Origin: a virus
Taxonomy: Duplodnaviria; Caudoviricetes
IMG/VR virus record: IMGVR_UViG_3300032220_000132
Coordinates: 207-64,206 of that record
Strand: one strand, 5' to 3'
Length of the DNA: 64,000 bases
A program made the translations under genes and the position numbers. The notes beneath the pieces were generated by a model, which had not been told where the DNA came from, searched no databases, and saw only the letters and a list, made by a program, of their open reading frames with translations. Positions within the stretch are counted from its first letter, which is position 1. Every line of letters begins with the position of its first letter. This document shows positions 15,020 to 38,343 of this stretch, in pieces.

Positions 15020-15027
15020 GAACTAAT

Positions 15028-15465: not shown

Positions 15466-15468
15466 TCA

Positions 15469-16040: not shown

Positions 16041-16048
16041 ATTGAATC

Positions 16049-16501: not shown

Positions 16502-16758
16502 ATATGCAAGACGTACTAAAGGCGGTTATTCCGATCTTGGTAGCCTGTATAGCGTGGCTACTCGGTCAAGTATCCTCATTCCAAACCCGCCTAACTCAAA
16601 TCGAGGGCAAGATGCCCGCCCTAATTACTTCGGAAGGCATCCCAACGGACAGCCCTATTTCAGCCGAGCGCAGGGCAAAGATGCGTGAGGAACTGTACAA
16701 AGAACTCCATGACCTCCATGTGCGGGTCAAACTCTTAGAAGAAAGAGGAAAGAAATGA
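16498..16758 (+). CDS. Membrane protein (holin-like)
   Basis: N-terminal TM helix plus coiled coil, in lysis cluster. Confidence 0.55.
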   Translation: MNMQDVLKAVIPILVACIAWLLGQVSSFQTRLTQIEGKMPALITSEGIPTDSPISAERRAKMREELYKELHDLHVRVKLLEERGKK

Positions 16759-17240
16759 TTACCCTATTTACTACCCTTATATCGTTCCTGTCAGGCGGAC
16801 TACCTAGCCTACTGGGATTTTTTCAAGACAAGTCCGACAAGAGGCATGAGATGGAAATGGCTCGTTTGCAGACCGAACGGGAACTCCAGATGATAGAGCG
16901 TGGTTTCCAAGCACAAGCCCATGTAGAAGAGATTAAGACCCAGCAGATTGAGATGCAGACCCAAGCCCAAGAAAGGGCGTCTTTGTATGCCCACGACATC
17001 GAGATTGGCAAGGGAGCTTCCCAGTGGGTTACAAATTCACGGGCAATGGTTAGACCTGCCATTACCTACGGTATGTTCTTGATGTTCATGTTTGTAGAAC
17101 TGTTTGGGTTCTGGTTTGCCTTCCATCGGGAAGTGCCATTTGACGTGGCGTTAAACCTCCTATGGGATGATGAGACCCAGATTATCTGGGCAAGTATTGT
17201 TTCTTTCTGGTTTGGAACACAGGCATTTTCTAAGAAATGA
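16755..17240 (+). CDS. Holin-like membrane protein
   Basis: RAMVRPAITY and IVSFWFG motifs, multiple TM helices, upstream of lysozyme. Confidence 0.65.
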   Translation: MITLFTTLISFLSGGLPSLLGFFQDKSDKRHEMEMARLQTERELQMIERGFQAQAHVEEIKTQQIEMQTQAQERASLYAHDIEIGKGASQWVTNSRAMVRPAITYGMFLMFMFVELFGFWFAFHREVPFDVALNLLWDDETQIIWASIVSFWFGTQAFSKK

Positions 17241-17713
17241 AAGTAAGCGATAAAGCCATCAAGATGATAAAACATCATGAAGGTTGCAAACAACGTCCCT
17301 ACCGCTGTCCCGCAAAATTGTGGACGATTGGTGTCGGGCATGTACTCTACCCACGGCAAGGAGCTTTAAAGATAGAAGAACGGGATGCCTACCCACTGGA
17401 GTACAAGGATGACCGTACCTTTTCAATGGAGGAAGTAGATGACATTCTTAGAGACGATCTTAATCGCTTTGAGCGAGGTGTTGAACGCTTCTGTCCTGTC
17501 AAGCTCACTCAAGGTCAATTCGATGCTCTTGTATCTTTTAGCTTTAATGTTGGTCTGGGAACACTACAGCGCAGCACCCTCCGTCAGAAGGTTATTCGGG
17601 GCGAAATGGAAGAAGCGGCAGAAGAGTTCTTGAAATATACGCTGGCTGGGGGTAAAGTACTGAAAGGTCTAGTAACCCGCAGGAACGATGAACGTGCCTT
17701 ATTCTTGAGTTAA
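17237..17713 (+). CDS. Endolysin, GH24 phage lysozyme
   Basis: IKHHEG...PYRCPA...WTIGVGH, QFDALVSFSFNVG, GLVTRRNDE. Confidence 0.92.
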   Translation: MKVSDKAIKMIKHHEGCKQRPYRCPAKLWTIGVGHVLYPRQGALKIEERDAYPLEYKDDRTFSMEEVDDILRDDLNRFERGVERFCPVKLTQGQFDALVSFSFNVGLGTLQRSTLRQKVIRGEMEEAAEEFLKYTLAGGKVLKGLVTRRNDERALFLS

Positions 17714-22100: not shown

Positions 22101-22553
22101 ATGCTACAGAGCGCCCAGTCATATGAAGCCAAGCAAAAAGCAGCAGAGATATTGCTTGAACATGTTGGGGTGCAACCTTGCGGTGATTTAGAAGCATTGT
22201 TTTGGGTAGATGAAGAGAATAAAATTGAATGGGTAGTAGGGTTTACGGCTTTTATAGGAAAGACTTGCCAGATGCACGTTATAAACCTAGTAGATTCGTA
22301 TACCCCAAAAGGGTTGTTATTTGGAGCATTTGATTTTCCATTTAACTATCTAGGCGTAGAGAAAATAATTGCCATAGTTAATAGTCTTAATACTAGGGCT
22401 ATGAACTATGACAAGAAATTAGGCTTTACCGAGGTTGTGCGTTTAGAAGGTATGCACGATGATGGTGGAGATTTGGTAGTTTTAGAAATGAATAAAGCTG
22501 ACTGTCGCTGGATTAGGGAGCGTGTAAAACATGAAACAGAATTGGTCTCGTAG
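22101..22553 (+). CDS. GNAT-fold acetyltransferase-like protein (T7 gp13 position)
   Basis: FDFPFNYLGVEKI...NTRAMNYDKKLGFTE GNAT motif. Confidence 0.7.
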   Translation: MLQSAQSYEAKQKAAEILLEHVGVQPCGDLEALFWVDEENKIEWVVGFTAFIGKTCQMHVINLVDSYTPKGLLFGAFDFPFNYLGVEKIIAIVNSLNTRAMNYDKKLGFTEVVRLEGMHDDGGDLVVLEMNKADCRWIRERVKHETELVS

Positions 22554-24675
22554 AGAGTTAGAAGCCTTTGGTGAGCCCCTAGGCGATAGCGTCACCCAGC
22601 GTAAGCTCGGTGGTGGATACATTTGCGGTGGCGGTGGTAAGGGCGGTGGCGGTGGTGGTGGTAGTCCTCCCCCAGCCAGCCAGACTGTGACTCAAACCTC
22701 AATCCCTGAGTATGCCCGCCCATATGTGGAGACCATGCTTGGCAAGTCCGAGGCTCTCACAGATATTAACCAGAATCCTTATCAAGCCTACGGTGGTCAG
22801 CGGATTGCTGGGTTTAATCCAATACAAGAACAAGCGTTTCAAAACATTACCAACCAGCAAGTAGCTGGTCAGGTTGGCGCTGGAACTGCCATGGCTGGAG
22901 CAGCTGGCTTAGGCTCATTAGGCGCAGGGGCAGACTATCGCAACATGGCTACCAACCCTAATGCGACTGCTGCTTATATGTCTCCTTACATGCAGAATGT
23001 CGTAGACGTTCAGAAGAATGAGGCGTTTCGTGACGCCCAGATGCGTAACATTGGTGCAAATCTTGGCGCTGCCCGTCAAGGAACCTATGGTGGTGCTAGA
23101 CAACTATTGGCTGAGCAGGAAAGAAATCGCAACCTTCAACAGCAGATGGCAAACATTCAAGCCACTGGAACGCAGAACGCTTTCCAAGCGGCTCAACAAG
23201 CTCAACAGTTTGGCACAACCGCTGGTTTACAAGGTTACGGACAGGCTCTTCAAGGCGCTGGCGCTTTGGGTCAGCTTGGTCAAACTCAATTTGGTCAGCA
23301 ACAGGCTATTAATCAGGGACTACAAAACGTAGGCGCTGTGCAACAAGCTCAGGCTCAGCAAGGTCTAGACTTGGCATATCAGGATTTCCTCAAACAGCGT
23401 AACTACCCATATCAGCAATTGGCATTTATGTCGGATATGACCCGTGGTATTCCTTTATCTCAGGCTGCCCAACAGGTATATACAGCACCTCCAAGTGCAG
23501 CATCCCAGCTTGGCGGTCTAGGTATGTCAGCCCTAGGTATCTACGGCATGTCAGGCGGATTTAAGGCTAAAGGCGGTCAGATTAAAGAGATGGCTAAGGG
23601 TGGTCTAGCCTATGCTACTGGCGGTGACATTAAGACAATGACTACTGATCAGTTAGAAGCTCTTCTAGAAAATCCAGGCCTAACTCCGCTAGAAGTAGAC
23701 ATGGTTGAAAAGCAGTTAATGGTTCGTAGACGCATGGCAATGAACCCTGAATCGGATCAAATCATGGCTCCTGCCTTGCGTTCTGGTATTGCCAGCATCG
23801 CTACAGGCGATATGGTTCCAGAGGAAATGGCTGGTGGCGGTATCGTAGCGTTTGCCACGGGCAATAAGGTTCAAGACAAGTTTGCTGCTTACGAAGACAT
23901 GATGTTAGAAGACATCAAGAGACGGCAAAAGGCCTTAGAGCAAGGTGATCCGTATGCAAAAGCAGAGGCTGAAGAAGCTAATATTAGGAAAAGCCTACAG
24001 AAAAACAGAGAAACTGCACCATACCGAGCACTAGCCATGGCTGGTCTTGGAACAATGGCTGGCACATCTCAAAACGCCTTATCTAACCTAGGACTAGGTG
24101 GTATTGAAGGATTGAAGAGCTACGCCCAAGCTATGCGTGAACAGGATGAAGGTCAGAAACTACTCTTGCAACAGGCTGGTGATCGTGAGAAGTCTAAGTT
24201 TGCTCGTGAGACTGCGTTGCTTGGATCTCAGCAGACTGCCCTTGGTCAGATGCTTGGTCGCAGGGCTTCGGCTGAGGCATCGGCTGCTGCCCGTGCAGAA
24301 ACTGCATCTAGAAACAAGCAGTTAGATTTTACAAGAGCGCAGACTGCCTATAACAGCTTATATAACAATGCCTTAGACAATCTAAAGGATACGGCTAAGC
24401 CTGGTGGCGTTAATTACAGGAAGTACAAAGACGATCCTACCGCAATGAACAGGGATGCCCGTGCTGCTGCAATGAACGAACTATCACCACAACTGCGTGA
24501 TACTCTTGGCTTCCAAGCTCCAACAGCCACAGGTACTCTTCCTCCAGCAGCACCTGTAAAAGCACCTCCAAAAGCAGCTGTTCAGCAGTTAAAAAATATG
24601 GATACTCCTGAAACAAGAAAGCAATTTGATGCTATATTTGGTCCTGGTGCAGCGCAAAGAGCGCTAGGCAAATAA
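22531..24675 (+). CDS. Internal virion / ejection (DNA pilot) protein
   Basis: GGGGKGG N-terminus, YMSPYMQNVV, Gln/Gly-rich, QRNYPYQQL. Confidence 0.75.
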   Translation: MKQNWSRRELEAFGEPLGDSVTQRKLGGGYICGGGGKGGGGGGGSPPPASQTVTQTSIPEYARPYVETMLGKSEALTDINQNPYQAYGGQRIAGFNPIQEQAFQNITNQQVAGQVGAGTAMAGAAGLGSLGAGADYRNMATNPNATAAYMSPYMQNVVDVQKNEAFRDAQMRNIGANLGAARQGTYGGARQLLAEQERNRNLQQQMANIQATGTQNAFQAAQQAQQFGTTAGLQGYGQALQGAGALGQLGQTQFGQQQAINQGLQNVGAVQQAQAQQGLDLAYQDFLKQRNYPYQQLAFMSDMTRGIPLSQAAQQVYTAPPSAASQLGGLGMSALGIYGMSGGFKAKGGQIKEMAKGGLAYATGGDIKTMTTDQLEALLENPGLTPLEVDMVEKQLMVRRRMAMNPESDQIMAPALRSGIASIATGDMVPEEMAGGGIVAFATGNKVQDKFAAYEDMMLEDIKRRQKALEQGDPYAKAEAEEANIRKSLQKNRETAPYRALAMAGLGTMAGTSQNALSNLGLGGIEGLKSYAQAMREQDEGQKLLLQQAGDREKSKFARETALLGSQQTALGQMLGRRASAEASAAARAETASRNKQLDFTRAQTAYNSLYNNALDNLKDTAKPGGVNYRKYKDDPTAMNRDARAAAMNELSPQLRDTLGFQAPTATGTLPPAAPVKAPPKAAVQQLKNMDTPETRKQFDAIFGPGAAQRALGK

Positions 24676-24690: not shown

Positions 24691-27600
24691 ATGGCGATTA
24701 AGCCTGAGAACGTCAACCCGTTTGCAAAATACGTTGAAGAACCAGCTGAAGCGCCTCCCGAAAACCCGTTTGCCAAGTATCTTCAGATATCCCAACTAGA
24801 AGAAGCAACCAAGAAGTACGAAGAAGAAGTACCTTTTTTACAACGTGTTACTGATCCATTACAAGCTGGAATTGCAAGAATTCCTGGGATACTGCCAGGA
24901 TTAGAAGTATCAGCTATTCAGAAACAAATCAACGCCATACGAGAAGGTAAGGGCGGTCCCCGTGATCCTATTACAGGCGAGTCGCTACCTTTTCAGCCAG
25001 AAGAAGCTGATGCAGCAATTAAGATGTTGCAAGCCCAGCAATCAGAGGCACAGAAGAAAGTCATGGCTGCTCAGGCAGAGGCTGGTAAATACCAAACTAG
25101 ACCAGCAGTAGCTGCGCTTGGCAATGCAAAAACAGCAAGAGAGGCGTTTGATTTATTCCAAGTAGACCCATTAGGGGTAATGTCTAGCGTATCCCTAGAA
25201 AGTCTCCCACAAATGGGTCCAGCCCTTATCTTGGGTGCGGTTACTAGAAACCCCACGGTAGGTGCTTTAGCAATGGGTAGCACCAGCTTTGCTGGAGAGT
25301 TGTCCTCTGGAATTACTGAGTACTTTCAAGATAAGGGTGTAGATGTTAAAAACCCAGTAGCGGTCAATAAAGCCTTAAATGATCCAGTTTTGTTTGCAGA
25401 GGCATATAACCACGCTCTAACACGGGCATCTATCATTGCTCCATTAGATGCGGCATCTGCTGGTTTAGCCAGCAAAATGCTGGTTCCCAAGCAAGTTATA
25501 AAAAATCAGTTCGCTAAGGAAGCTCTTAATATTGGCGTAGCCCAGCCTGTTGCTCAGATGATTAGTGGTGCTGGCGGTGAGGCATTAGCCCAGTTAGCCA
25601 CAGAAGGTGAGATAACCAAGCCTGGTCAAGTATTAATGGAGGCAGCTGGAGAAGGACCATCTAGCGTTCTTGAGACGGCAGCCTTTGGCGGTAAAGAAGC
25701 ATATGATCGTTTAAAAGCTAGTCAGCCACCTGCACCACCAGTTCCACCAGCTCCAACTGTAACAGGTGCTCCACCAGCAGTTCCTCCAGCTGCACCAACT
25801 GATTTAGCTCCAACAGTTGAAGAGGATGACTTAGCTCCATCAGCCATAGTTCCTCCTAGCGTAGTAGCTCCATTGGCTGGTATGGTATCTACAGAAGGCT
25901 TAGACCCAGCAATTGCACAGCAAGTAGAAAGTCTTAAAGCCGAACTCCTAATGATTGAAAATAGGAGAACAGACCCTACTCGCAACGTCAGCGAAATGGA
26001 ATTAGAATTTTTGGCACAAAGAGAAGCCGAAGTTGCCAAAGAAATTACTGCCTTATTAACTCCTAAAGCACCAGAAACTTTAGTAACTCCAGTAACTCCA
26101 GAAGCTCCTGTTACGCCTCCTGTTACACCTCCTGTTGCACAACTAGATTTAATTGGCAGATTGCAAGAGTTTGGCGAGGTTATTGAGTCACGGCAAGATG
26201 CAGAGACTCGTTTCTCTAACGGGGAACAAATATACGCCTTCTCAGAACAAGACGAGCAGCCATTCCTTATTCGCAATATAGATGAAATATCGGCTTATAC
26301 GCCAGATAGACTGTTGGCTTTGCCTGCTGCAGTAGCGGAGGAAGTAACTACTGAGCCAGAGGTTGCTACTACAAACCAAGTATTTTCAAATGATGGTTTG
26401 CAAATTTTTGCTGGTAAAAATAAAGAAGGAACTTTTGTAGCAACAAAAGGTAACCTTGGTGATGGCACTGAAAAGACTTTATTACTTGATAAAGACGGAA
26501 ACACCTTTTGGGGCGATAGAAAAGAAAGTATTAACCCAACAACTGGTGAACGCACAATTGTTGGCGCTGATAAAGATGCAACTCCAGCAACATTTGCTAC
26601 AGCAAAAGAAGCTCGTTCTGCTGGTGAAAGAACTTTAGAGGCTGTTCCAGCTGTAGAGGAAACGCCAGCAGAGCCTACCAAAGAAGAGCAGATTGCTATT
26701 AACAAAGCTCGTCAGGAAGAGCAAAGAGCTGCTGCAGAAGCTGAGAAAGCTGAAAAGGAAAAAGCTGAAAAGGAAAAAGCGCCTACTGAGGAAGAGATAG
26801 CCAAACCTACTGGTGGGCCAGCTATTGGAGGACCAGCTGCCCCTACTGGTGGACCAGCTGCGCCTAAAAAGGTAGCTCCAACGGAGGAAGAGAAGAAAGA
26901 AAAAGAAGAGGAAAAGAAAGCTAAAGAGGAAGAGAAGAAGGCTAGAGAAGAAGAGAAGAAAGCCAAAGAAGAAGAGAAGGCTCAAAAAGAAGAGCAAAAA
27001 AAGAAGATAGCTGAATTAAACACAAACCCAATGAAGGTTGCCATGGAAACTGGCAATGCGGATGCGGTTGCAACACTCCTATACGGACATGCTGTTGATG
27101 AAAATTTACATCCAGTTATCTTCCCAGAAGAGATGCTGTTGCGTATTCCAGTCGAAACAACTCTTCTAAGTCAGATAGAAGACCAATTAGTTAAAAACAA
27201 ATTCCGCATTACTGACAGAGCAGTTCCAGCAAAAACAGACGATCCGTCCTATGTAGGTCCTGAAAGAATTACTATATCTGCGTTATATAACCCAGAAAAA
27301 GTAAGCATACAGGGTGGTGGTGCTGAATTTTTTAACAACCGTAAAGGACAAATTACTGCTGCTCCATTACCAAAAGATGCCACAGAAAAACAAAAAGATG
27401 CGCTGGTAACTGAATTGTTAGATTTGGCAAACCCCAAAAAATTATTAGACATTCAATCGAATCCAAAAAACACATTTGGCGCATTGATGTTTAAAGAGGG
27501 GTTGGTATCTAAGATAAAGTCACCTGGAGACTATCTCTTTGAGTTAATTAACTTGAATGCAAGAGCTGGCGGACAGTTCAATACTTACATTCCTTCTAAA

Positions 27601-30600
27601 GCAGGAAATCGCCAAGCAATCAAATTAGTCATAGATGATGGCAAAGAACAGTTAGTTAGAAAACTATTAGTAGATTATGTAACGTCTTTACAGACCCTAC
27701 AAGCTGTAATTAACGAGCATTCTAATGTTACCCCTTTATACGATGCATTGGTGGCAAAGTATGTAAAGGATGAGAATGCAGACCGCATACCTGACATATA
27801 TACACCAGAGGGTGTAGATTTAAGAAATAAAATTGAAGATGTTAGGCTGTATCAATACATTCCAAGATTGTTTCTTTTGTTTAGCCTTGATGAAAACTCT
27901 ACTGATCAAACAAACCGAATTGTAAAGAAAGACGCAGAGACTCCACCAGAGTTAGGTAACATCATTCGCCGTGGTATGCGTGATCATCGGCAAGGTCGAG
28001 ATGTAGATGTACAAGACTTTTTGCAAACATTTAAATTTTTACCAGGCGGTATTGACTTTGGTAATTGGGTTAATCAGTCAGAACGTGCAGCCCATCTAAA
28101 CGCTATTTACGATGCGATGTATGACTTAGCAGATATTGCTGGTATAGCGCCAGAGATGCTAGGCTTGAATGAAAAGTTAAAACTAGCTGTAGGTGCACAG
28201 GGTCGTGGTGGCAAAACTGCGGCTTGGTTCGTTCCTCAATACAACGAAATCAACTTAACAAAAACAAAGGGAGACGGAACACTAGGGCATGAATGGCAAC
28301 ACGCATTAGATTGGAATTTAAGAACATCTGCCAACGGAAAAGTCTTAATGGCTGATACGGCACATACTCTACAAAATATGATTACTGTAGAAAGAGTAGA
28401 AAATAATTTACGGTCAATCTTAACCAATACAGCCAATAGTGAAAATAACCGTAATACGCCACCTAAAAAAGCATTTTTTAATGCTATTTCAAATAGTCGA
28501 TATGGTGAAGCAGACATCTATCGTAGCTCTTTTACTGATACACAATTTTACAAAGATGCTTTGGAATTAGACAGAGGTAGAGATAAACCCTATTGGAGCA
28601 CTCCAGTAGAATTGTTGTCTAGGTCTTTTGAATCTTTAATATATGATCTATCAAAAGGTGGATCTCCATATCTAGTTGGACCAACAGTAGCCGATGGATA
28701 TGTATCTAAAAAGAATGGTTATCTTGGCACTACTTATCCAGCTGGTAAAGAGCGCCCTGTAATCAATCAAATATATCAACAGATGTTGGATCAAATTGAT
28801 CCTAAGACTTTAGAGATAAAAACATACAAAATAGAAAATCAAATTATTGCGGTTGAAGAGTTAGGTTATGCAGTAGTTGATCAGTATTACCTTGATCGTG
28901 GTCGACTAGGTGGTTTAAATTGGTTTAAAACAAAAGAAGAAGCAAAAGAAGCTAAAGAACAACGTGACGGCACAGAAGCAATATTAACGCCACGGCTAAT
29001 GCAAATTAGCAAGGTTAATCAAAGCATCATTAACATGGCACAACGTATTGATGCCATTATGGATGAGATGGGCTTGTTTAAGTGGCCTGAAATCAAAAAT
29101 GGCTCAATGGCTGAATCCATGTTCTACCATATGCGTCAAGGCTGGTGGCCCAAGAACAACCGTGAACTAGCTGAGTATGGCATCAAAGCGTATTTGCAAG
29201 CTCCTGAGCTATTGGGATTTAACCCTGCTAAAAACCAAAGGGAAATAGACAACTACAAAATTGCTGATTTTGAAGGTGATCGAGTTAAGTTAAAACAAAC
29301 TCAAGAAGACTTTGAGGCAGCAGCGGTTCGGTTTATTAGCCAAGTCATTACAGATATGCGATCAGAAGGTTCTGATACCAAAGCTATCTATGACCATATT
29401 GTTGGCTTATACCAAAATCAACCTACATTAGATGTTAAGTCAGTATTAAGCGTATCCAATAATGCTTACTCTACGCCTTTGCCGATTGCATACCTTGCTG
29501 GCATGTTATCTCGTGTTAAATCGACTACAACAGTATTAGATCCAACTGGCGGTAATGGAATGCTGGTTGTTACGGCTAATCCTAAAAACGTAACAACAAT
29601 AGAGATAGACCCACATCGTGTTAACAATTTAGAGTTAATGCAAATAGGAGATGTGATTGAAGGTGATGCATTAGTAAAAATAAAAGACATACAAGACCAA
29701 AAGGTAGACGTAGTTCTTACAAACCCTCCATTTGGATCACTTCCAACGCCTGTAGATGTTAAGTCTTGGACAGGACAAAATTACAAGATTGGTGCAATAG
29801 ATCAACTGATTGCTGCAGAATCATTGCGAACAATGGCAAATGACGGTAGAGCAGTTTTAATACTCGGATCTCATGTCAAGCCAAACACTATTACATCAAC
29901 AGATAGAGTGTTTTTAAATTGGTTATACGGCAATTACAATGTTGCTGACCACTTTGAAATTGCTGGAAATTTATATCGTAAACAAGGTGCGTCTTTTCCG
30001 TTGCGTGTCTTGGTTATTGCTGGAAGAAATCAAACGGACAATGTTTTCCCAAATGATTTTGTTGTCAATAGAATAAATTCATTTGATGAATTGTGGAGCA
30101 GATATGTTCAAGCCAGTGATCGTAGCGAACAAGTCGTGGTGGGTACCAGAAAATTACGGGGACCTGCTGGCGGTGCAGATAGAACAACCAGAACAGTACC
30201 AACAGGCGATAATCTCCAAGATGGCGAAACTAGCGGAGGAATGGGGAGGACTGGAGAGGGCGCTGGCATCGGCGAACAATTACCTCCGACAGGAGGGGTC
30301 AACGTACCTCCCAGTGCCAGTGGACGTGGAACAGCTGGTGGAGTTCGTGATACAGAACAACAGCAGGATAGCGGAGAAGATCAACGAGGGAGACCCAGAG
30401 GTGGCGAACCCAGCACCGCAGAAAGAAGCGATATATCTGGTGAAGAATCAAGCACTGAACTGGGAGGACTTTCTGACCTAGAGCTAGACGATATATTTAA
30501 TAGCTTAGGCAAAAAACCAAAAACAGGAACAACGACACCAAAAGGAGAGCCTAAAGGTGTTAGAGGTCCAAGAGCTCCTAAAGGAGCAGCTAAAACTAAA

Positions 30601-33600
30601 ACAGTCATTCCTAAAGAGTTAGAAGGTTTAGGACTTGAAAGTTTGCTTGATGAATTAGATGCAGCATTAAATGGTAAAGCTCCAGAGGTAACAATTACAG
30701 AGCCGACCCCAGAAAACAGCGATGCTCGACTAGACAAGCAATCTCAAGAAGCAATGGATCGTATAGCGCAAAATGCAAAAAATACTAGCGATGATCCTAA
30801 CAGTGGACTGTATTCTAGAAAAGACGACCAAGAGTATGCCAATGTAAAACCAATTATTCAAAAAGTTTGGGAAGCTGTCGGACAAAAAATTACAGATACC
30901 AAACAACGTATTCAACAAGTTTATGATTTATTGGTTAAAAAATTTGGTGATTTAATTAAAGGTCATTTAAGAACCTATGTTAATGAACTAAGAAATACAG
31001 TACAAAGAAGACCTAAAAATCAAACTCCAGTACAGAGTGAGCCAATTGATACAGAATCAAGAGTTGTTTATTTAGGCAAGTCAAGGTTTTCAAGCGATGG
31101 CATTTACTTACCTCGTGCTCAATCACAGCATGCGTATACGGCTTTAGAAAACCTAGAGGCACAAGTTGGCAATATAGATGAATTTGTTGCCAAAGAATTA
31201 GGATACTCATCTATTGATCAAATGGCAAAGGGACTTGCTGGTTATCAAATCGATGCACTAGGTTTAGCAATTCAAGCTAACAAACTTGGAAAAGGTTTTA
31301 TTATTGGAGACGATACTGGCGTAGGTAAAGGCAGAACAGCTGCAGCCATGATTGTCTGGGCAAAGAAGCAAGGCAAAGTTCCAATCTTTGTTACCCTGAG
31401 TGATTCTTTATACACTGCAATGTATGCCGACTTAATTGCCATTGGTCATGGCGATATTCAAGTGGCAATGACTAATTCTGATTCCAAAATAATTAAGGAC
31501 GTTGGAGAAGGCAAAACTGAATTAGTTTTTGAAAACAAAAAAGGTGATAACGACAAGTTAATTAAATACATTACACAAAATAGAAAATTGCCTCCTGGCA
31601 AAGATGTTTTATTTACTGCATATTCTCAGTTAAATGGTGGCGTAGGATCTCCAGCAAGACAATCAGCAATAGCATCTCTAGTTGCAAGTGGAGATGCTGT
31701 ATTAATTATGGATGAAGCCCATAATGCCGCTGGTACGCCAAGCGACAAAGACTCAATGGGTCAAAATGCCTTCTTTATGTCTTTGCTAACGGGTGAAAAC
31801 TTATTGGGCAAAGGCGAGGAAGTGCCTGAAAGTTGGAAGCCACCGCCCACTGTTTACTTATCTGCTACGTTTGCAAAACGTCCAGATAACATGCCTTTGT
31901 ATATCCATACAAACTTACGTTATGCCGCAGACACTCCAGAAGATTTAACAGCCTTGTTTGGTAAAGGCGTTAAAACAGATGTGTTGCAACAAGTGTCTTC
32001 AGAGATGTTGGTAGAGTCTGGCTCAATGATACGCAGAGAAAGATCGTATGAAGGCGTAACGATGGAATTCGTTATTGATGACAAGAATACCGCAAGAGAT
32101 ACTAGAGAAGTTGACAAGGTTACAGAAATACTAAGATCTTTGGTTAATGCAGACCGAGCTTTTAAAGAGTGGATAAAAACTGAGGGCGGAAAGGACGCAG
32201 TAGTTAAGTTAGGTCCTCCAGGCTCGTATATGGGTAAAGTTGGACCAACAGCATTTAATGATACAAAATCTAATCCATTTACCTCTGTAGTGCATAACTA
32301 CATAGGATCGTTGCTGCTTTCAACTAAAACTCAAACTGCTGTAGACATGGTTGTTGACAAACTTAACAACAATGAAAAAGTAGTTGTTGGATTACAAAAC
32401 ACCAATGGCAGCGCATTAGAAGATTTTGTTGCACAAAACAACATTAAAAAAGGCGATGACATCCCTGACTTTGGATGGCAAACATTAATTAAACGTGCCG
32501 TAAAATCCACTACAAAAGTAACTTTAAAATCCGCTAGTGGCAATAAAGACATGGATCAGGTTGTATATGTTCCTTATGAACTAATGCCACCGAATATCCG
32601 AGCTGGATATGAGAACGTTGAAAATGCTTTAGAAAATTTCCAATCTGATTTACCAGCCGCACCAATTGATTTCATACGCACAGAGTTAGAACAGAAATAT
32701 GTATGGACTATTGATGGCAAAACCCACGTTGGAGACACACCGCCTAAAGGGGTAAAAGCAAGACACTTAGTTGTAAAAGAAATTACAGGCAGAAAGAACG
32801 GAATAGATTACTCTGGAGACGTACCAAAGTATGTAACGCTAGATAATCCTAGTCGTACAAGTATGATTTCGTCATATCAAAATGGCGAAGAATCTAAAAA
32901 TGGACCAATAGATGTACTGATAATTAACTCCGCAGGCGCAACTGGAATCTCGTTGCATGCCTCAGTAGATGCATTTGACCAGCGTCCACGGCACATGATT
33001 GTCTTACAGCCACATGGGGATATTAGCGTCTTCATTCAGTTGTTAGGAAGAATACATAGAACGGGTCAGGTTGAATGGCCTTCATTCACTATGTTAGCAA
33101 CTGGAATACCAGCTGAGAGACGAATCTTAGCCATGTTGCGTAAGAAATTGTCTAGCTTGAAGTCCAATACTTCTGGCGGATCTAGCAGTACAAAGGTTGA
33201 AGGCGTAGATTTTATTAATATGTATGGCGATGTAGCAACAGCCGAATACTTGAATGAACATCCAGACATACAAGCCTTTTTAAGTGTGCCTCAGTATTCA
33301 GATCCTGCCGAAGCCGCTGGTTCTGACTTGGCTCACAAAGCGTCAGGCACAGCAGGATTGCTATCTTCGGCAGACCAAAAAGAGTTCTTTGACTCTATTG
33401 AAGCCAGTTATATAGCGGAAATAGATTTAAGGAATGCTACAGGAACTAATGCATTAGAAAGAAGGGTATTGCCATTAGAAGCTGAAATTATCAAAGAAAA
33501 CTTAATCGAAGAGGGTTTAGATAGTTCCAATCCATTCTTAACTGATGTAGTAATGGCACAGTTTAACGTGGATATTATTGGCTCAATACCTACTGTACAA

Positions 33601-36600
33601 AACATAAAAGATGACATCAGTTTTGCATTAAACGGCAAGACAGCGCAGGACGTTGTTAATGAAATAGAGACAGATTTAAACAGCGTCTATATTGAAGTAA
33701 GAAATCAAATTGTTCTTAAACAGCAAGCGCTTGATGAAGCTATAAAAAATCCAACAGCTACTGAAAAAGATATAGCAGAGTTAAATAAGCAAAAAATAGC
33801 GTTAGACAATCAATTTGCCACATTAAATGAACGTAAAGATAAAACGCTACAGGCACTAAGCAACACCTTTGCAATTGGAACTGGCTTTGAATCTTTTATA
33901 GTTAACAGTGTTCCATCCGCTGCTGTAGTTATAGGAATAAAGGTAGATAAAGCACGGATAGGTAAATCCAAAACTGGTAATCCTTATTCACCATCAAACT
34001 TCCAAGTTATTATCAAACGAAATATTCCTGAAGGTAGGATATCTCCAACCTTGGCAACATTGGAAGGTACATCAATTGAGCGATCTAGTCCTTGGACAAA
34101 CCCTCCTCTAGAAGATTGGTTTGCCTTAAAGTCGGTTACTGGTGGAAGAACAACTAGATATATAGCCTTAGGAAACATACTAAAAGCTGCTCAATTGTTT
34201 GGTCCTAGTGGCGGTGAAATTGCTAAATTTACTTTGCAAAATAGCAAAGAAGCAATATCTGGCGTAGTCATGCCATCTAAGTATGTGCCAGTGGCAATTA
34301 GCGAACAAGCGGTTCGGTTAAGAAACCCAGAAGCAGCAGTTCAATATTTGCTGGCTATGTGGGACAGCATAGTACAGAAAAAATATAACGATACTCAAAT
34401 TGAATCATATAAAGAATTAAGTGATACCTTAAAACCTTTAATGATTCCTAATTTGCCAAACCCTTTTGATGGAGAAAAGACTAGTACAAATGCTGTTATA
34501 TTGCGTGGCTCAGCACAAACATGGCAGTTGCGGATTGATCCGTATCGACCAAATAACTTTAAAGTAATTATTGCAGGAGATGTTCCAAAGAAATTAATAA
34601 CTGCACCAATACTTAAAACGTTAATTCCAGGTGGCCTTGCCAAAAAAGGTAACAAAGCATATGAGATGTCTGGCGGTGATTCATTAACAGATCCACAAAA
34701 AATAATATTGTTAGTCAAGTTCTTACATAAAAATTACCCAGCGACAGTAGAAGCAGATAGCGCTAAGTTTGCTCGTGAAGTAATGAAAGTGGAGTTTGAC
34801 TATAGTGAAAGTAAGAAAGGTTTAGCATCACGGGGTCCTGCAGAGGGCGGTCAAACGGTTGAAGCTGTTCAAGCACAGATTGTTCCTATAAAAGGAATTA
34901 CAGTTAACGTTCTTCAATCAGTTGATGAATTGCCAGACAATACTGCGCCAGCTGACGTAGAAGGTATGTGGCTTTCGGGCAGAACTGTTTACTTAATTGC
35001 AGATAACCTACCAAATGCAAAAAGAGTACAGGAAGTATTAGCGCATGAGGCTGTTGGTCACGCTCTTTTAGAAGAGATGTTGGGACCAAAGCTGATGGCA
35101 GAATTGGTTAGAAATGTCCAAAACTTAGAAAAGACTTCTAGCCTTGTTAAGGAAATAGCCGCCAAAGTAGATCGTACACAGCCTGGCTTATCGCCAGAGC
35201 GAAGAGCCAAAGAAATCGTAGCAAACATGGCAGAGCGTGGCATGTACAAAATAGGTCTAGTACAGCGTGTTATTCAAGCCATTCGCAATTGGTTGAGAAG
35301 CCAAGGGTATACGATTAGCTTCTCTGATAGGGATATTGTTGAACTATTAAACTTTGCCGAAAACTACTTTGATCGTAAAGAAGCAGTCCGCTTTCCATCT
35401 TTACAACCTGCACCAGCAAAGACTCAAGCAGAGATCAATAGAGAGCGTCAACAACAAAAGCGGGAAAAGGCTGCTGGGTACTTCAGTAGAGAAGGCGAAG
35501 GCAAGAACACTGAAGACTTTGACAAGCAATTTGCTGAAGATGGCTTTAACAACACTCCAATTAGGTCTTCATCTACAGTAAAGGACACTTTACTTGGCGG
35601 TGCAAAACAGGCAAAGCAGGCTTACGACAACACTATAGATGCTCCAGCCATGGCATATAAAGCCATGAGTGGCAAGCTCTTGCGTGGCATTACCTATGTC
35701 CGTAATAAGAACATCTGGTATGGTGCTGGTTTGGAATTGGCTGAGAAAATCAACCAAAAGGCAGCTGGTTTATCTGGCAAGCTGCGTGATGGTCAAGGTA
35801 GAGCCATGGCTTCTATTGCCATTACCAATGCCTTACACGCTGGCAATATTGCCGTAGATGTTATTAGACAGGGCTCATTGGCGTTTAATAGAGATAGCCA
35901 GATGTTCCAAGCAATTAAACGACCATTCTCTATGGCTAACGTAATCATTGAAAAATCAAAGTTGATAGCTAGAGTTGGTGAACAACGTGCCCACGACATG
36001 ATTCAAATGTACTTTGAAGCCAAGCGCTCCAAGAGCATTAATGACGAATTCCAGAAAATAGAAGAGGAAATTGCTCGTTTAGATAAAGAGCGCCTTTCAC
36101 CAGGACTAGACAACGATCAGCTCAATCAAATTCTTAATGACCTTTTAAATGCCAAGCAGGACTTGAAGCAGATTGGTATTGCGAAAAAGAAGGTTCGCAT
36201 GACCGAAAAGCAGATAGATTTTTACAGAAAACTAGATGAAAAGCATCCAGAACTAGGCAAGATGATGGAGAACTGGACCAAAGTCAATCAAAACATGATT
36301 GACATGATGTTGTTTAGCAAAATCATCAGCAGTAAACGTGCAGAACGGCTTAAGAGCATTGAGGATTATGTTCCTTGGTATCGTATCCAAGATGATATGG
36401 AAGACGTTCACGATACAAGCACCATGGGTAGTGTGCGTAGCAATACTAATATTGCCAAAGAAAAGAAATTCAAGGATACCGAAGTAAATAAGGATATTGA
36501 TGACATTGTGGATAACATGCTCCACAACGTTATGACTATTACCCGTAACTCTATGCGTAACTACGCTGCCAACCGTGTAGTTGATTCTTTTGCAACCCGT

Positions 36601-38343
36601 GTTAAAGGAAAAATAGCAGTCTTTCCAAAAGAAGGACCCACAACAAATGGCGCAGTTCGATTAAACATCTTACGCAATGGTCGCAGAATCATCGTTGAAA
36701 TCAAGGATCCATTGATTGCCGAGTCCGTAACAGGTATGGAAGATGTTGCTATTCCTGGCATGGATGTCCTCGGTATGGCTGCAAACGGATTACGCAGAGG
36801 TATTACGTTATGGCCTGCGTTCCAAATAAGACAGCTATTTATGGATGCCCCAACAGCTGCTCTGGTTTCTGGAGTAAAGAACCCAACTAAGCTCTGGGGA
36901 GAAGTATTTGGTGGTTTTATAAAGTCAGTAAAAAAGGATGATCCTATAGTTGAGCTCTTACGGTCCTATGGAATAGGTGGATATCAGTCCTATACCAGAA
37001 CTGCAGAAATGGAACTGAAACAAAGGATTGGCTTAATTGAAAAGAACAAGTTTGATTGGTTGATGAGTAAATTAGATCAAATTGGAGATGCCTCAGATAT
37101 GGCGCAGCGTGTGGCTATATACAATCGTGTTTTGGCTGAGACTAAATCTGACGAATTTCCTAATGGCGATCAGATGCAAGCCCTTATATCTGCCAACAAC
37201 ATTATTGACTTCAAAAAACGTGGCTCAGGTCGTTTAGCCCAGTTCCTAACCAGAACTGTATCCTTTATGAACGCCTATGCCCAGCAGATTGACGTGCTGG
37301 CATTGACAATCGCTGGTTCTGGGTACACTGGCAAGAGCAAATCAGACGCCTATGTGCAGTTAGCCAAGACAGCAGTGCTGTTCTCTTTCTACGTCATGCT
37401 CTATTCATGGGCAGTTGGTGGAGAAGATGACTACGAAGAACTAGATGATCAGACAAAACTGCGTAATCTTTATATTCCAAAGGCGCTGACCAAACAAATT
37501 GGCATGGACAACGGTTTATTAATTCCAATGCACACATCGGCTAGTTTCTTCTTTAAGTCAATTCCAGAGCTAACCTATAACACAGTAATGAAAGAGGGAA
37601 CAGAAAATGAAATTGATGGCGCTCGTCTTCGTAAAGCCCTTGCCGAAGCTGCTATAGACTCATTATTAGGTCCTAACCCAGTGCCAACTGGTATCAAACC
37701 AGGTTTTGAGATTTTGCTCAATAGAAACTTCTTTACTGGTGGCACAGTAACTCCTAAAGGTATGGAAGACCTAGATGCTGTTGAGCAATACACCGCATCA
37801 ACCTCTGAGCTTGGCAAGATTCTTAGCGCTATAACTAACATCCCATTCACCGATAAGCGTATTCTTAACCCAATTGAGGCAGATCACCTAGTTCGTGGTT
37901 TATTTGGAACTACTGGTGCAGCTGTCCAGTGGGGTAGCAATATATTCTCTGGTGATCGCCCAACCGCTACAGCTAGACAGAATCCGCTGTATGGCTCGTT
38001 TATTGCCCCTGATGTAGCCCGTGGTAATGAGGAACTGTTCTATGACTTTAAGAGTAAGGTTGATAACAAGTACGAAACCTATATGAAGCTCTTAGAGCGT
38101 GATAAGGCAGATGAGGCTGATAGGTACTACAACAAGCATGCTGACCTGATCTCAGCCCGTGACTATGTGACTGGCATGGAAGTAGCCTTGCGTGACTTAA
38201 ACCGCCAGATTCGTAACACTGGTGAGGTAAAGGACAAGAGTTTCACGCCTGATCAACGTAGACAGGAGATCACTGATCTACAGCGCTCTAAGCAGGAGCT
38301 GCTAGAAGGGATTATCCAGATGCGCTTGGACTCTGGACTGTAA
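24691..38343 (+). CDS. Giant (4550 aa) polyvalent ejection protein: LPD1-like/zincin, N6-adenine methyltransferase, strawberry-notch SF2 helicase, metallopeptidase, LPD38-like C-terminus
   Basis: FGNWV...GHEWQHALD (~28290), YWSTPVELLSRSFE; VLDPTGGNG + NPPF (~29530-29735); GDDTGVGKG, DEAH, AGATGISLHA (~31300-32960); LAHEAVGH (~35040). Confidence 0.85.
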   Translation: MAIKPENVNPFAKYVEEPAEAPPENPFAKYLQISQLEEATKKYEEEVPFLQRVTDPLQAGIARIPGILPGLEVSAIQKQINAIREGKGGPRDPITGESLPFQPEEADAAIKMLQAQQSEAQKKVMAAQAEAGKYQTRPAVAALGNAKTAREAFDLFQVDPLGVMSSVSLESLPQMGPALILGAVTRNPTVGALAMGSTSFAGELSSGITEYFQDKGVDVKNPVAVNKALNDPVLFAEAYNHALTRASIIAPLDAASAGLASKMLVPKQVIKNQFAKEALNIGVAQPVAQMISGAGGEALAQLATEGEITKPGQVLMEAAGEGPSSVLETAAFGGKEAYDRLKASQPPAPPVPPAPTVTGAPPAVPPAAPTDLAPTVEEDDLAPSAIVPPSVVAPLAGMVSTEGLDPAIAQQVESLKAELLMIENRRTDPTRNVSEMELEFLAQREAEVAKEITALLTPKAPETLVTPVTPEAPVTPPVTPPVAQLDLIGRLQEFGEVIESRQDAETRFSNGEQIYAFSEQDEQPFLIRNIDEISAYTPDRLLALPAAVAEEVTTEPEVATTNQVFSNDGLQIFAGKNKEGTFVATKGNLGDGTEKTLLLDKDGNTFWGDRKESINPTTGERTIVGADKDATPATFATAKEARSAGERTLEAVPAVEETPAEPTKEEQIAINKARQEEQRAAAEAEKAEKEKAEKEKAPTEEEIAKPTGGPAIGGPAAPTGGPAAPKKVAPTEEEKKEKEEEKKAKEEEKKAREEEKKAKEEEKAQKEEQKKKIAELNTNPMKVAMETGNADAVATLLYGHAVDENLHPVIFPEEMLLRIPVETTLLSQIEDQLVKNKFRITDRAVPAKTDDPSYVGPERITISALYNPEKVSIQGGGAEFFNNRKGQITAAPLPKDATEKQKDALVTELLDLANPKKLLDIQSNPKNTFGALMFKEGLVSKIKSPGDYLFELINLNARAGGQFNTYIPSKAGNRQAIKLVIDDGKEQLVRKLLVDYVTSLQTLQAVINEHSNVTPLYDALVAKYVKDENADRIPDIYTPEGVDLRNKIEDVRLYQYIPRLFLLFSLDENSTDQTNRIVKKDAETPPELGNIIRRGMRDHRQGRDVDVQDFLQTFKFLPGGIDFGNWVNQSERAAHLNAIYDAMYDLADIAGIAPEMLGLNEKLKLAVGAQGRGGKTAAWFVPQYNEINLTKTKGDGTLGHEWQHALDWNLRTSANGKVLMADTAHTLQNMITVERVENNLRSILTNTANSENNRNTPPKKAFFNAISNSRYGEADIYRSSFTDTQFYKDALELDRGRDKPYWSTPVELLSRSFESLIYDLSKGGSPYLVGPTVADGYVSKKNGYLGTTYPAGKERPVINQIYQQMLDQIDPKTLEIKTYKIENQIIAVEELGYAVVDQYYLDRGRLGGLNWFKTKEEAKEAKEQRDGTEAILTPRLMQISKVNQSIINMAQRIDAIMDEMGLFKWPEIKNGSMAESMFYHMRQGWWPKNNRELAEYGIKAYLQAPELLGFNPAKNQREIDNYKIADFEGDRVKLKQTQEDFEAAAVRFISQVITDMRSEGSDTKAIYDHIVGLYQNQPTLDVKSVLSVSNNAYSTPLPIAYLAGMLSRVKSTTTVLDPTGGNGMLVVTANPKNVTTIEIDPHRVNNLELMQIGDVIEGDALVKIKDIQDQKVDVVLTNPPFGSLPTPVDVKSWTGQNYKIGAIDQLIAAESLRTMANDGRAVLILGSHVKPNTITSTDRVFLNWLYGNYNVADHFEIAGNLYRKQGASFPLRVLVIAGRNQTDNVFPNDFVVNRINSFDELWSRYVQASDRSEQVVVGTRKLRGPAGGADRTTRTVPTGDNLQDGETSGGMGRTGEGAGIGEQLPPTGGVNVPPSASGRGTAGGVRDTEQQQDSGEDQRGRPRGGEPSTAERSDISGEESSTELGGLSDLELDDIFNSLGKKPKTGTTTPKGEPKGVRGPRAPKGAAKTKTVIPKELEGLGLESLLDELDAALNGKAPEVTITEPTPENSDARLDKQSQEAMDRIAQNAKNTSDDPNSGLYSRKDDQEYANVKPIIQKVWEAVGQKITDTKQRIQQVYDLLVKKFGDLIKGHLRTYVNELRNTVQRRPKNQTPVQSEPIDTESRVVYLGKSRFSSDGIYLPRAQSQHAYTALENLEAQVGNIDEFVAKELGYSSIDQMAKGLAGYQIDALGLAIQANKLGKGFIIGDDTGVGKGRTAAAMIVWAKKQGKVPIFVTLSDSLYTAMYADLIAIGHGDIQVAMTNSDSKIIKDVGEGKTELVFENKKGDNDKLIKYITQNRKLPPGKDVLFTAYSQLNGGVGSPARQSAIASLVASGDAVLIMDEAHNAAGTPSDKDSMGQNAFFMSLLTGENLLGKGEEVPESWKPPPTVYLSATFAKRPDNMPLYIHTNLRYAADTPEDLTALFGKGVKTDVLQQVSSEMLVESGSMIRRERSYEGVTMEFVIDDKNTARDTREVDKVTEILRSLVNADRAFKEWIKTEGGKDAVVKLGPPGSYMGKVGPTAFNDTKSNPFTSVVHNYIGSLLLSTKTQTAVDMVVDKLNNNEKVVVGLQNTNGSALEDFVAQNNIKKGDDIPDFGWQTLIKRAVKSTTKVTLKSASGNKDMDQVVYVPYELMPPNIRAGYENVENALENFQSDLPAAPIDFIRTELEQKYVWTIDGKTHVGDTPPKGVKARHLVVKEITGRKNGIDYSGDVPKYVTLDNPSRTSMISSYQNGEESKNGPIDVLIINSAGATGISLHASVDAFDQRPRHMIVLQPHGDISVFIQLLGRIHRTGQVEWPSFTMLATGIPAERRILAMLRKKLSSLKSNTSGGSSSTKVEGVDFINMYGDVATAEYLNEHPDIQAFLSVPQYSDPAEAAGSDLAHKASGTAGLLSSADQKEFFDSIEASYIAEIDLRNATGTNALERRVLPLEAEIIKENLIEEGLDSSNPFLTDVVMAQFNVDIIGSIPTVQNIKDDISFALNGKTAQDVVNEIETDLNSVYIEVRNQIVLKQQALDEAIKNPTATEKDIAELNKQKIALDNQFATLNERKDKTLQALSNTFAIGTGFESFIVNSVPSAAVVIGIKVDKARIGKSKTGNPYSPSNFQVIIKRNIPEGRISPTLATLEGTSIERSSPWTNPPLEDWFALKSVTGGRTTRYIALGNILKAAQLFGPSGGEIAKFTLQNSKEAISGVVMPSKYVPVAISEQAVRLRNPEAAVQYLLAMWDSIVQKKYNDTQIESYKELSDTLKPLMIPNLPNPFDGEKTSTNAVILRGSAQTWQLRIDPYRPNNFKVIIAGDVPKKLITAPILKTLIPGGLAKKGNKAYEMSGGDSLTDPQKIILLVKFLHKNYPATVEADSAKFAREVMKVEFDYSESKKGLASRGPAEGGQTVEAVQAQIVPIKGITVNVLQSVDELPDNTAPADVEGMWLSGRTVYLIADNLPNAKRVQEVLAHEAVGHALLEEMLGPKLMAELVRNVQNLEKTSSLVKEIAAKVDRTQPGLSPERRAKEIVANMAERGMYKIGLVQRVIQAIRNWLRSQGYTISFSDRDIVELLNFAENYFDRKEAVRFPSLQPAPAKTQAEINRERQQQKREKAAGYFSREGEGKNTEDFDKQFAEDGFNNTPIRSSSTVKDTLLGGAKQAKQAYDNTIDAPAMAYKAMSGKLLRGITYVRNKNIWYGAGLELAEKINQKAAGLSGKLRDGQGRAMASIAITNALHAGNIAVDVIRQGSLAFNRDSQMFQAIKRPFSMANVIIEKSKLIARVGEQRAHDMIQMYFEAKRSKSINDEFQKIEEEIARLDKERLSPGLDNDQLNQILNDLLNAKQDLKQIGIAKKKVRMTEKQIDFYRKLDEKHPELGKMMENWTKVNQNMIDMMLFSKIISSKRAERLKSIEDYVPWYRIQDDMEDVHDTSTMGSVRSNTNIAKEKKFKDTEVNKDIDDIVDNMLHNVMTITRNSMRNYAANRVVDSFATRVKGKIAVFPKEGPTTNGAVRLNILRNGRRIIVEIKDPLIAESVTGMEDVAIPGMDVLGMAANGLRRGITLWPAFQIRQLFMDAPTAALVSGVKNPTKLWGEVFGGFIKSVKKDDPIVELLRSYGIGGYQSYTRTAEMELKQRIGLIEKNKFDWLMSKLDQIGDASDMAQRVAIYNRVLAETKSDEFPNGDQMQALISANNIIDFKKRGSGRLAQFLTRTVSFMNAYAQQIDVLALTIAGSGYTGKSKSDAYVQLAKTAVLFSFYVMLYSWAVGGEDDYEELDDQTKLRNLYIPKALTKQIGMDNGLLIPMHTSASFFFKSIPELTYNTVMKEGTENEIDGARLRKALAEAAIDSLLGPNPVPTGIKPGFEILLNRNFFTGGTVTPKGMEDLDAVEQYTASTSELGKILSAITNIPFTDKRILNPIEADHLVRGLFGTTGAAVQWGSNIFSGDRPTATARQNPLYGSFIAPDVARGNEELFYDFKSKVDNKYETYMKLLERDKADEADRYYNKHADLISARDYVTGMEVALRDLNRQIRNTGEVKDKSFTPDQRRQEITDLQRSKQELLEGIIQMRLDSGL
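30104..30481 (+). CDS. Nested out-of-frame gene (125 aa) inside giant protein
   Basis: GGAG 30095-30098, 5 nt, then ATG 30104; globular-looking product, while the host frame is a low-complexity G/R/T/E linker. Confidence 0.65.
   Translation: MFKPVIVANKSWWVPENYGDLLAVQIEQPEQYQQAIISKMAKLAEEWGGLERALASANNYLRQEGSTYLPVPVDVEQLVEFVIQNNSRIAEKINEGDPEVANPAPQKEAIYLVKNQALNWEDFLT

Follow-up and report, generated by a model that had tools for sequence, protein, structure and literature searches.

A probable small gene embedded in the +1 frame of a giant polyvalent-protein gene of a tailed phage

We analysed a stretch of 64,000 nucleotides (nt) of DNA from a virus of the Caudoviricetes (IMG/VR record IMGVR_UViG_3300032220_000132, positions 207 to 64,206), here called the window, and in it an open reading frame (ORF) of 125 amino acids (aa) at 30104-30481 that lies inside a giant gene. 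The phage record is 64.2 kb long with direct terminal repeats, and the window covers nearly all of it. An earlier note on this DNA had proposed that the ORF, preceded by a GGAG motif, is a true gene overprinted in the +1 frame of a 4550-aa protein. The features at this locus are as follows.

24691..38343, + strand: host gene for a 4550-aa phage-type "polyvalent protein" with LPD1, a DNA methyltransferase, a Strawberry-notch-like superfamily 2 (SF2) helicase and LPD38
29455..29889, + strand: methyltransferase core of the host protein, residues 1589-1733 (phrog_3820, 6025, 6263, 67), upstream of the embedded gene
30080..30111, + strand: putative translation-initiation region of the embedded gene, with GGAG at 30095-30098, a 5-nt spacer and ATG at 30104
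30104..30481, + strand: probable embedded gene, 125 aa, in the +1 frame of the host gene, with ATG at 30104-30106 and TAG at 30479-30481
30106..30429, + strand: low-complexity linker of the host protein rich in G, R, T and E (G/R/T/E), residues 1806-1913, which is the host-frame reading of the overlap, poorly conserved and stop-free
30430..30684, + strand: host-frame "tail" after the linker, with the acidic amphipathic motifs ELGGLSDLDLDDIF and IPKELEGLGLESLLDELDAALNGKAP, both conserved, and a basic K/P/G spacer between them
31243..33258, + strand: Strawberry-notch-like SF2 helicase of the host protein, residues 2185-2856 (AAA_34 1.5e-16, ResIII 6.3e-5, Helicase_C_4 7.8e-20), downstream of the embedded gene

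The embedded ORF is complete, with its own start and stop, and lies wholly within 24691-38343 on the same strand. Host codons start at 30100 and 30103, so the ATG begins at host codon position 2, which is the +1 frame, and the T of this ATG is the wobble base of a host Tyr codon. The product reads MFKPVIVANKSWWVPENYGDLL...NWEDFLT, and the first 52 nt of the tail (30430-30481) are shared with the 3' end of the embedded gene. The coordinates and signals described in the earlier note were reproduced, and its placing of the ORF opposite a G/R/T/E-rich linker between methyltransferase and helicase is borne out by the positions of the Pfam and PHROG domains. The overlap is also GC-richer than its surroundings, as had been noticed, with a GC content of 0.54-0.565 over 30100-30400 compared to 0.35-0.425 in the flanks (200-nt windows).

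The +1 frame is open from 30077 to 30479, a run of 134 codons that is the longest across the +1 and +2 frames of the giant gene; the runner-up has 76 codons. Long open +1 runs are to be expected in this linker because it has few codons with T at position 2 (14%, compared to 26% gene-wide), and such NTN codons are the only source of +1 stops. Synonymous shuffles reached at least 134 open codons in 2.4% of 5000 trials with gene-wide codon use, in 0.46% of 5000 trials with local permutation and in 7.6% of 500 trials over the whole gene. The ORF could then be a by-product of a T-poor, NTN-poor linker, with its apparent conservation caused by constraint on the host frame or on the nucleotides themselves (an RNA structure or DNA site). 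The 14% figure and the shuffle frequencies of 0.5-7.6% speak for such an origin, as does an antisense ORF of 118 aa (30381-30737) that is open here too, yet the comparisons given below leave it barely credible.

To compare relatives, IMG/VR was scanned with the methyltransferase segment, which returned 25 loci. In the near clade, at 68-96% methyltransferase identity, 20 loci span the region and represent 19 distinct sequences, and all 20 of these complete loci keep the +1 ORF from MFKPVIVA.KSWWVPE to NWEDFLT and the stop. A 21st near locus, L018, ends at a contig edge inside the ORF with the +1 frame still open. The only length change in the overlap is a single 3-nt indel. Stops in the +1 frame of close homologues over a conserved linker would have spoken against the gene; instead every relative that spans the ORF has an unbroken +1 frame.

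The pattern of variation in the 19 sequences changes over the ORF. Nucleotide diversity at host codon positions 1, 2 and 3 is 0.167, 0.079 and 0.441 in the methyltransferase and 0.306, 0.232 and 0.492 just downstream of the ORF, compared to 0.278, 0.181 and 0.124 in 30104-30478. In the overlap the host wobble position is thus the most conserved and the third position of the +1 codons is the most variable. Counts of variable columns at host positions 1, 2 and 3 are 207/437, 109/436 and 405/436 in the methyltransferase and 93/123, 59/123 and 40/123 in the overlap, a contrast with a chi-square of 76.9 (p = 2e-17) for sites that are not independent, the sequences being related. Sliding windows place the switch in periodicity at 30090-30150 and the return at 30450-30510. 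As an internal control, we scanned 25368-34090 in 90-nt windows (18 sequences, 7138 ungapped columns). Over these 8.7 kb, windows in which host position 3 is not the most variable, or in which its diversity is below 0.25, occur only in 30048-30542.

Estimates of the ratio of nonsynonymous to synonymous change (dN/dS) point the same way. Naive Nei-Gojobori values, which ignore the overlap, are 1.65 for the host frame, 0.31 for the +1 frame and 1.01 for the +2 frame in the overlap; the corresponding values are 0.068, 1.39 and 2.98 in the methyltransferase and 0.11, 1.26 and 2.0 downstream. Translations of the overlap have a mean amino-acid identity of 0.74 when read in the +1 frame, compared to 0.62 for the host frame. 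The signature of purifying selection therefore appears in the +1 frame and not in the linker frame, and the proposal of a true gene made in the earlier note is upheld by the frame switch, by the comparison of the two frames (0.31 vs 1.65) and by the intact relatives. Of the frames in the overlap, the host frame is the least constrained, with its position 3 least variable, which is the opposite of what host-frame constraint would produce. A nucleotide element would not give a 3-nt periodicity in register with the +1 codons either.

The host frame is nevertheless open across the overlap in every locus examined. Third positions of the +1 ORF hold T in 4% and G in 49% of cases, compared to 35% and 15% in the phage's genes. 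When the +1 protein was re-encoded with the phage's codon usage, the host frame stayed open in 0 of 20000 trials, and the GC content expected after re-encoding was 0.416 +- 0.014 compared to the 0.541 observed. T is avoided at +1 third positions because these are host position 1, where T would create stops, and this avoidance in turn raises the local GC content to a peak. The GC island is a footprint of dual coding. Both readings are under selection, which preserves the sequence of the small protein and, in the linker, chiefly the openness and constant length of the frame.

We also found the ORF in a more distant clade. In four viral loci (L023-L026) with a methyltransferase about 40% identical, the +1 ORF is open at the same place in 4/4, and it is open in 9/9 loci from bacterial metagenome-assembled genomes (MAGs; L062-L070, mostly Betaproteobacteria), among which L067 is cut and L070 divergent. 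One of these MAGs has the host gene as an ORF of 3608 codons within a prophage that also carries an integrase and a gene of the Rz family. The ATG of this clade is formed from bases of the host Tyr codon plus the next base, with M located there in 9/9 sequences analysed, and a TGG-derived GGAG, GGGAG or GGAA precedes it in 8/9. The encoded proteins follow the pattern W[VIL]P...ALSVP...ALEMSQE.AP. A profile-profile comparison of the near family with the distant clade (34 sequences) gave a probability of 92.5% and an expect value (E) of 4.9e-7 over 116 columns; the embedded proteins of the two clades are homologous. Diversity at +1 positions 1, 2 and 3 in the distant clade (9 sequences) is 0.438, 0.394 and 0.526, with host position 3 again least variable; as a control, the helicase of this clade gave 0.189, 0.143 and 0.492 at host positions 1, 2 and 3.

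Searches elsewhere returned little. The near-family profile matched 0/401 genomes of the order to which genome G001 belongs, but this search also misses G001's own distant copy; a second profile (A8) matched 1/401, which is G001 itself. The DNA pattern for SWWVP[ED] gave 10 family members among the best 80 of at least 118 stretches, and only the near clade among the matches listed. A further family alignment (A4) searched in viral contigs also found only the near clade. Among GenBank phages there was no match to 27500-33000 by blastn, or to P0001 or the L063 ORF by tblastn.

Among GenBank phages, the closest methyltransferase is that of Bacteroides phage BS-TP4 (34.7%), followed by that of Acinetobacter phage MD-2021a (30%). 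The temperate phage BS-TP4 has been cultured and is reported to be prevalent in gut viromes (PMC12694917). Its giant coding sequence (CDS) at 1511-17686, the 5391-codon gp3, is the sole annotated feature over the following ORF.

PQ571277.1 10032-10391 (L193 3264-3623): unannotated +1 ORF of 115-119 codons in BS-TP4, in a G/R/T/E linker after the methyltransferase

The fifth codon of this ORF is probably its conserved start, and its third positions hold T in 8% and G in 46% of cases. Ten distinct sequences, with IMG/VR relatives (L195-L205), make up the BS-TP4 clade, and their diversity at host positions 1, 2 and 3 is 0.081, 0.062 and 0.384 upstream, 0.211, 0.139 and 0.081 in the ORF and 0.066, 0.043 and 0.324 downstream. 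Comparison of the protein with the window family by hmmsearch and hhalign gave no match (profile comparisons E 0.35 and 0.83). The BS-TP4 ORF is a positional analogue with the same selection flip, for which homology was not detected. MD-2021a (L194, CAKLQH020000019.1 16838-22536) provides a natural negative example. It has a related methyltransferase-helicase protein with a linker that is acidic and rich in D, E and N, and the +1 frame of this linker is full of stops. An embedded frame is therefore not general to such linkers, which also counts against an origin from linker composition.

We then considered the product itself. It has an isoelectric point (pI) of 4.47, a net charge of about -8.5 and no Cys. 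The family comprises 99 clusters at 90% identity in a set of 5.8 billion proteins. At 50% identity there are 41 clusters with E <= 1e-3, 25 of them with E <= 1e-10, from a profile search of 1.84 billion representatives; most members have 116-140 aa. An alignment of 30 diverse members has W13, P15, A35, K39 and L43 invariant, with identity to the window protein down to 23%. All 11 members for which it was computed are acidic (pI 4.05-4.92, net charge -4.5 to -22). The earlier note had called the product globular-looking. The AlphaFold2 (AF2) model of the product alone, built from 82 rows, predicts a confident fold, with a mean predicted local distance difference test (pLDDT) score of 95.4, a predicted template modelling (pTM) score of 0.88 and no residue below 70. 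The model has an N-terminal beta-hairpin carrying the WWVP motif, one 35-residue helix and four short helices. A nucleotide element would not be expected to yield such a fold, nor a family that diverges to 23% identity while keeping its hydrophobic pattern.

VIA-align found no match to the model among 48,161 chains (best Z 3.1), and the ESM Atlas held no usable match. A match to the SfnG monooxygenase among PDB sequence profiles (best E 0.0024) was judged spurious; the SfnG family in NCBIfam scored far below its cut-off. No in-frame fused form was found among proteins of 376-2000 aa with the near-family profile, which is a weak test.

Some family members stand free of any giant gene. Nine clusters of 203-219 aa begin with MKNIA (P0005, P0008, P0010, P0012, P0013, P0014, P0016, P0018 and P0019), and the five inspected consist of the host-frame tail (ELGGLSDLDLD...LEGLGLE.LLDELD.ALNGKAP) followed by the embedded domain in its own frame. 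The fused genes lie in three different neighbourhoods.

L041 5986-6645: free-standing fused gene of 219 aa (P0016), alone in a variable stretch of a bacterial contig of 31.7 kb
L042 3-536: free-standing fused gene
L050 1872-2147: free-standing fused gene

We take the neighbours on L041, read from their translations, to be an aminoacyl-tRNA-synthetase fragment and glycosylase-like, accA-, tilS- and aspartokinase-like genes, and a 699-aa ORF near the fused gene is presumably DUF262-like (judged by eye). At the fusion junction, window position 30684 (the end of the tail) is joined to 30104, with the embedded start codon changed from ATG to GTG, and homology reaches 30502, beyond the embedded stop, which implies that the fused gene is a rearranged piece of a phage-type gene. 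L041 and L042 differ in the domain at codon positions 1, 2 and 3 in 19, 8 and 35 of 124 cases, a pattern that reads as ordinary coding evolution in the domain's own frame. That bacterial genes read the domain in its own frame is hard to reconcile with a by-product of linker composition. Tail-like motifs also follow the domain in P0047, P0104 and P0134 and precede it in P0111. A search for the DNA context of P0104 in viral contigs and of P0132 in genome contigs found nothing. The AF2 model of the fused P0016 (51 rows) has a pLDDT of 92-96 in the domain and 38-61 in the tail part, without confident docking.

The start of the ORF is conserved as well. The block CATTTGATGAA.T.TGGAG.AGATATGTTCAA is nearly invariant in the 19 relatives, sites synonymous in the host frame included. 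Invariant host third positions per 90 nt rise from 0-4/30 further upstream to 8/30 in 30010-30099 and 23/30 in 30100-30189. The GGAG-N5-ATG itself does not vary among the 19, and we take it as a putative internal ribosome-binding site on the giant mRNA. Host position-3 diversity is already down in 29920-30100 (0.28-0.34 compared to 0.43-0.54 further upstream), and the last ~30 nt of this low-variability stretch may be read as the ribosome-binding region.

A programmed +1 (or -2) frameshift just 5' of 30104 would offer another route to the same residues, by way of a truncated giant isoform, made up of the N-terminal domains, the methyltransferase and then this domain, ending at 30481. Frameshifting is a common way for phages to obtain two products from a single gene, and in prfB an SD-like (Shine-Dalgarno-like) GGAG a few bases 5' of the shift site stimulates a +1 shift. 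The domain is also in frame with other polypeptide segments in P0104, P0111, P0132 and P0134. The near clade, however, has a conserved +1 stop 9 codons 5' of the ATG, which leaves only 27 nt (30077-30103) for a shift, and no slippery or stop-stimulated site was recognised there by eye, without a formal search. A frameshift needs no ATG, yet ATG is found in 19/19 near sequences and its equivalent in L023-L026, with M in 9/9 distant sequences. GGAG and ATG are 5 nt apart, as at a start site, the majority of family members are called from Met1 on, and the periodicity of selection changes at the ATG and not upstream of it. We consider a frameshift very unlikely on these grounds, and prefer an independent start.

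Several observations weigh against a separately translated gene with a role beside the giant protein. The openness of the ORF is by itself only marginally beyond chance, and it is the comparative evidence and not the open frame that argues for a gene; that evidence in turn includes naive dN/dS values and site counts from related sequences. For the product, no family in Pfam, PHROGs or NCBIfam scored above cut-off, and fold searches of the AF2 model with Foldseek gave no match (PDB best E 2.1, BFVD best E 1.2). A promoter scan of 29600-30800 found 2 sites, with 2.0 expected and none above chance, although a promoter is not needed if the embedded gene is translated from the giant mRNA. In RNA data, a wastewater metatranscriptome (X1) has near-identical contigs across most of 28889-31716, and three further libraries have short pieces around 29947-30248 and 30410-30497. 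The X1 contigs show that the phage or a close relative was in that wastewater sample. Such contigs carry no frame, strand or level and may stem from DNA carry-over, so they do not prove transcription or translation. The guess at function, for its part, would follow only from position and from fusion with the neighbouring tail.

Taken together, these data support the idea that 30104-30481 is a genuine, separately translated gene, to which we give a probability of roughly 88%, and we infer that the small protein is expressed. Most likely, ribosomes start independently at the conserved GGAG-N5-ATG inside the giant mRNA. This internal start would yield a 125-residue, acidic, compactly folded protein, and ribosomes that make the giant protein would pass over the same DNA in the host frame and read it as a disordered linker. 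The small protein may work with the DarB-like methyltransferase-helicase module that flanks it.

The host gene and its setting bear on this last point. Pfam matches in the host protein to LPD1 (3.7e-10), LPD38 (1.9e-18), AAA_34 and Helicase_C_4 are all above cut-offs, and PHROG DNA methyltransferase matches fall at residues 1589-1733. A giant ORF with LPD1, LPD38, a methyltransferase and an SF2 helicase is, judged by domain content, a phage-type polyvalent protein with a DarB-like methylase-helicase dyad. The window also encodes a terminase, a portal, virion and tail-fibre proteins, an endolysin, an acyltransferase and a "DNA ejection protein". Two of these genes are referred to below.

22531-24675: "DNA ejection protein" (714 aa), directly upstream of the giant gene
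17237-17713: endolysin

An acyl-CoA N-acyltransferase-like gene and the 714-aa "DNA ejection protein" gene (22101-24675) lie immediately 5' of the giant gene, and with it they fit a block of internal virion or ejected proteins. A GroES-like co-chaperonin gene (61225-61635; phrog_3188, 1.4e-10) lies directly 3' of the portal gene. Towards its N-terminus the giant protein has P/A/V/T-rich stretches and, at residues ~670-800 (26700-27100), a K/E-rich repeat (EEKKAKEEEKKAREEEKKAKEEEK...). On the - strand, the 5' part of the giant gene has antisense open frames at 25722-26276, 26295-26705 and 26635-26997 (184, 136 and 120 codons). These three oppose A/P/E/K-rich repetitive protein, with no periodicity anomaly there in the scan from 25368 on, and the antisense frames in 25722-26997 are probably of compositional origin.

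Embedded genes on the same strand are known from phages, among them Rz1 inside Rz of phage lambda (+1 register) and genes B, K and E of phiX174. Like 30104-30481, each of these has a start of its own and is contained in full within a longer gene that is read from the same strand in a different frame; there as here selection keeps both frames, and one product is disordered over the overlap. The host gene differs, being here a 4550-aa polyvalent protein with the overlap in an inter-domain linker, and so does the embedded product, which is the ordered partner here (pLDDT 95) and belongs to a family that spans giants ~40% identical in the methyltransferase. In contrast to Rz1, it has no signal peptide, lipobox or Cys and is not a spanin. 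An Rz1-type o-spanin was rejected for the lack of Cys and of a hydrophobic N-terminal segment, and the endolysin sits elsewhere (17237-17713). A further nested gene is mobB, inside mobA/repB of IncQ plasmids. Its product too is a small accessory protein, whose gene occupies, in a different frame, the linker region of a large multidomain DNA-processing protein with which the product acts; it belongs to a plasmid relaxase system, not to a phage virion, and has no sequence relation to the embedded protein.

As a further comparison, the methylase-helicase dyad of polyvalent proteins, with P1 DarB as its archetype, has been described in the main text of Iyer et al. (2017; PMC5512222), and the host gene shares with those proteins LPD1, LPD38, an adenine-methylase-type domain and a Strawberry-notch-type SF2 helicase. 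Its neighbour is an ejection-protein gene, which fits an anti-restriction protein delivered with the virion. The main text of PMC5512222 treats the domains of a single long frame, and the words "overlapping" and "frameshift" are absent from it; the embedded gene would be an additional, separately encoded component. According to PMC12810830, P1 DarB is packaged with the small accessory proteins DdrA, DdrB, Hdf and Ulx. These are encoded with a DarB-type methylase-helicase and needed for ordered head incorporation or activity, which is the role guessed here. They come from separate, non-overlapping genes, and their likeness to the embedded protein is by analogy alone.

The constant position, the repeated fusion with the tail and the precedent of the P1 accessory proteins together suggest a tie to the methylase-helicase module. 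By this analogy the embedded protein may be an accessory factor of the DarB-like module, a possibility that we hold only tentatively; as candidate roles we consider a helper in assembly or packaging, a loading helper, or a regulator that restrains the module in the producing cell. The earlier note had suggested a possible chaperone, inhibitor or partner of the adjacent enzyme domains. A complex prediction of the embedded protein with the host tail (30430-30684) scored 0.00 in two runs which, lacking controls, carry no weight either way.

A real small gene could instead make a product unrelated to the giant, with the linker serving as free coding space; such a product might act early or in host takeover, for instance as an anti-restriction protein that mimics DNA. 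DNA mimics such as Ocr and ArdA are acidic, and so is this family throughout (11 members, pI 4.05-4.92); for the product, Pfam, PHROGs and NCBIfam gave no hit and the fold searches listed no match. Linkers are also described as tolerant of overprinting, their own sequence being unconstrained, in PMC8227390 and bioRxiv 10.1101/229690. Against a lack of any tie, the same position between methyltransferase and helicase is kept in giants ~40% identical, with a positional analogue in a third clade, and several divergent lineages (P0005 type, P0047, P0104, P0111 and P0134) join the domain to tail motifs in a single polypeptide, with either one coming first. Position and tail fusion argue for a tie to the module, and DNA-mimic activity is compatible with both. 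We regard an unrelated product as rather unlikely.

The relative age of the two frames can also be considered. The contrast between an ordered +1 product, as modelled, and a disordered linker argues, if anything, against the +1 frame being the younger one, as the term "overprinted" would imply it to be. That the giant gene reads through an older small gene is a live possibility, given the ordered product, the disordered linker and the possibly free-standing members. A more elaborate scenario joins these points, and as a whole we think it improbable. In it, the small gene is older and once stood free as an accessory gene; the giant was put together by read-through of this gene in another frame, and the G/R/T/E linker is its shadow. 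The role of the embedded protein would be that of a partner specific to the injected methylase-helicase (a safety catch, antidote or loading factor) that recognises the adjacent acidic tail motifs. Freshwater bacteria would have taken up a rearranged tail-plus-domain copy (as in L041) into variable islands next to defence-type genes, where it would serve as a decoy or sensor against these phages.

Phage genes embedded in other genes are known as a class, and overprinting is reviewed in PMC8227390. For this gene and its family no published description was found, and a literature search that included the motifs SWWVP, NWEDFLT and KSWWVPE (supplements being outside its scope) returned none. Polyvalent DarB-like giants, which are thought to be injected with phage DNA to defeat restriction, are annotated as one long frame. 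If the gene is real, the module has an overlooked component, and a second gene within a giant one can be marked by a disordered linker or by an odd island of GC content or codon usage. Such genes systematically escape gene callers; the GenBank record of BS-TP4 has only the giant CDS over the analogous ORF. The locus would also be a clean natural example of dual coding, in which the sequence is set by an ordered protein and all that is kept of the second frame is its openness. A use in an arms race is hinted at by the free-standing copies in bacteria, and the positional analogue in a cultured Bacteroides phage opens the question to experiment. In the improbable scenario above, and if similar genes in BS-TP4 and other DarB-like giants count, hidden linker genes would be a general design feature of polyvalent proteins.

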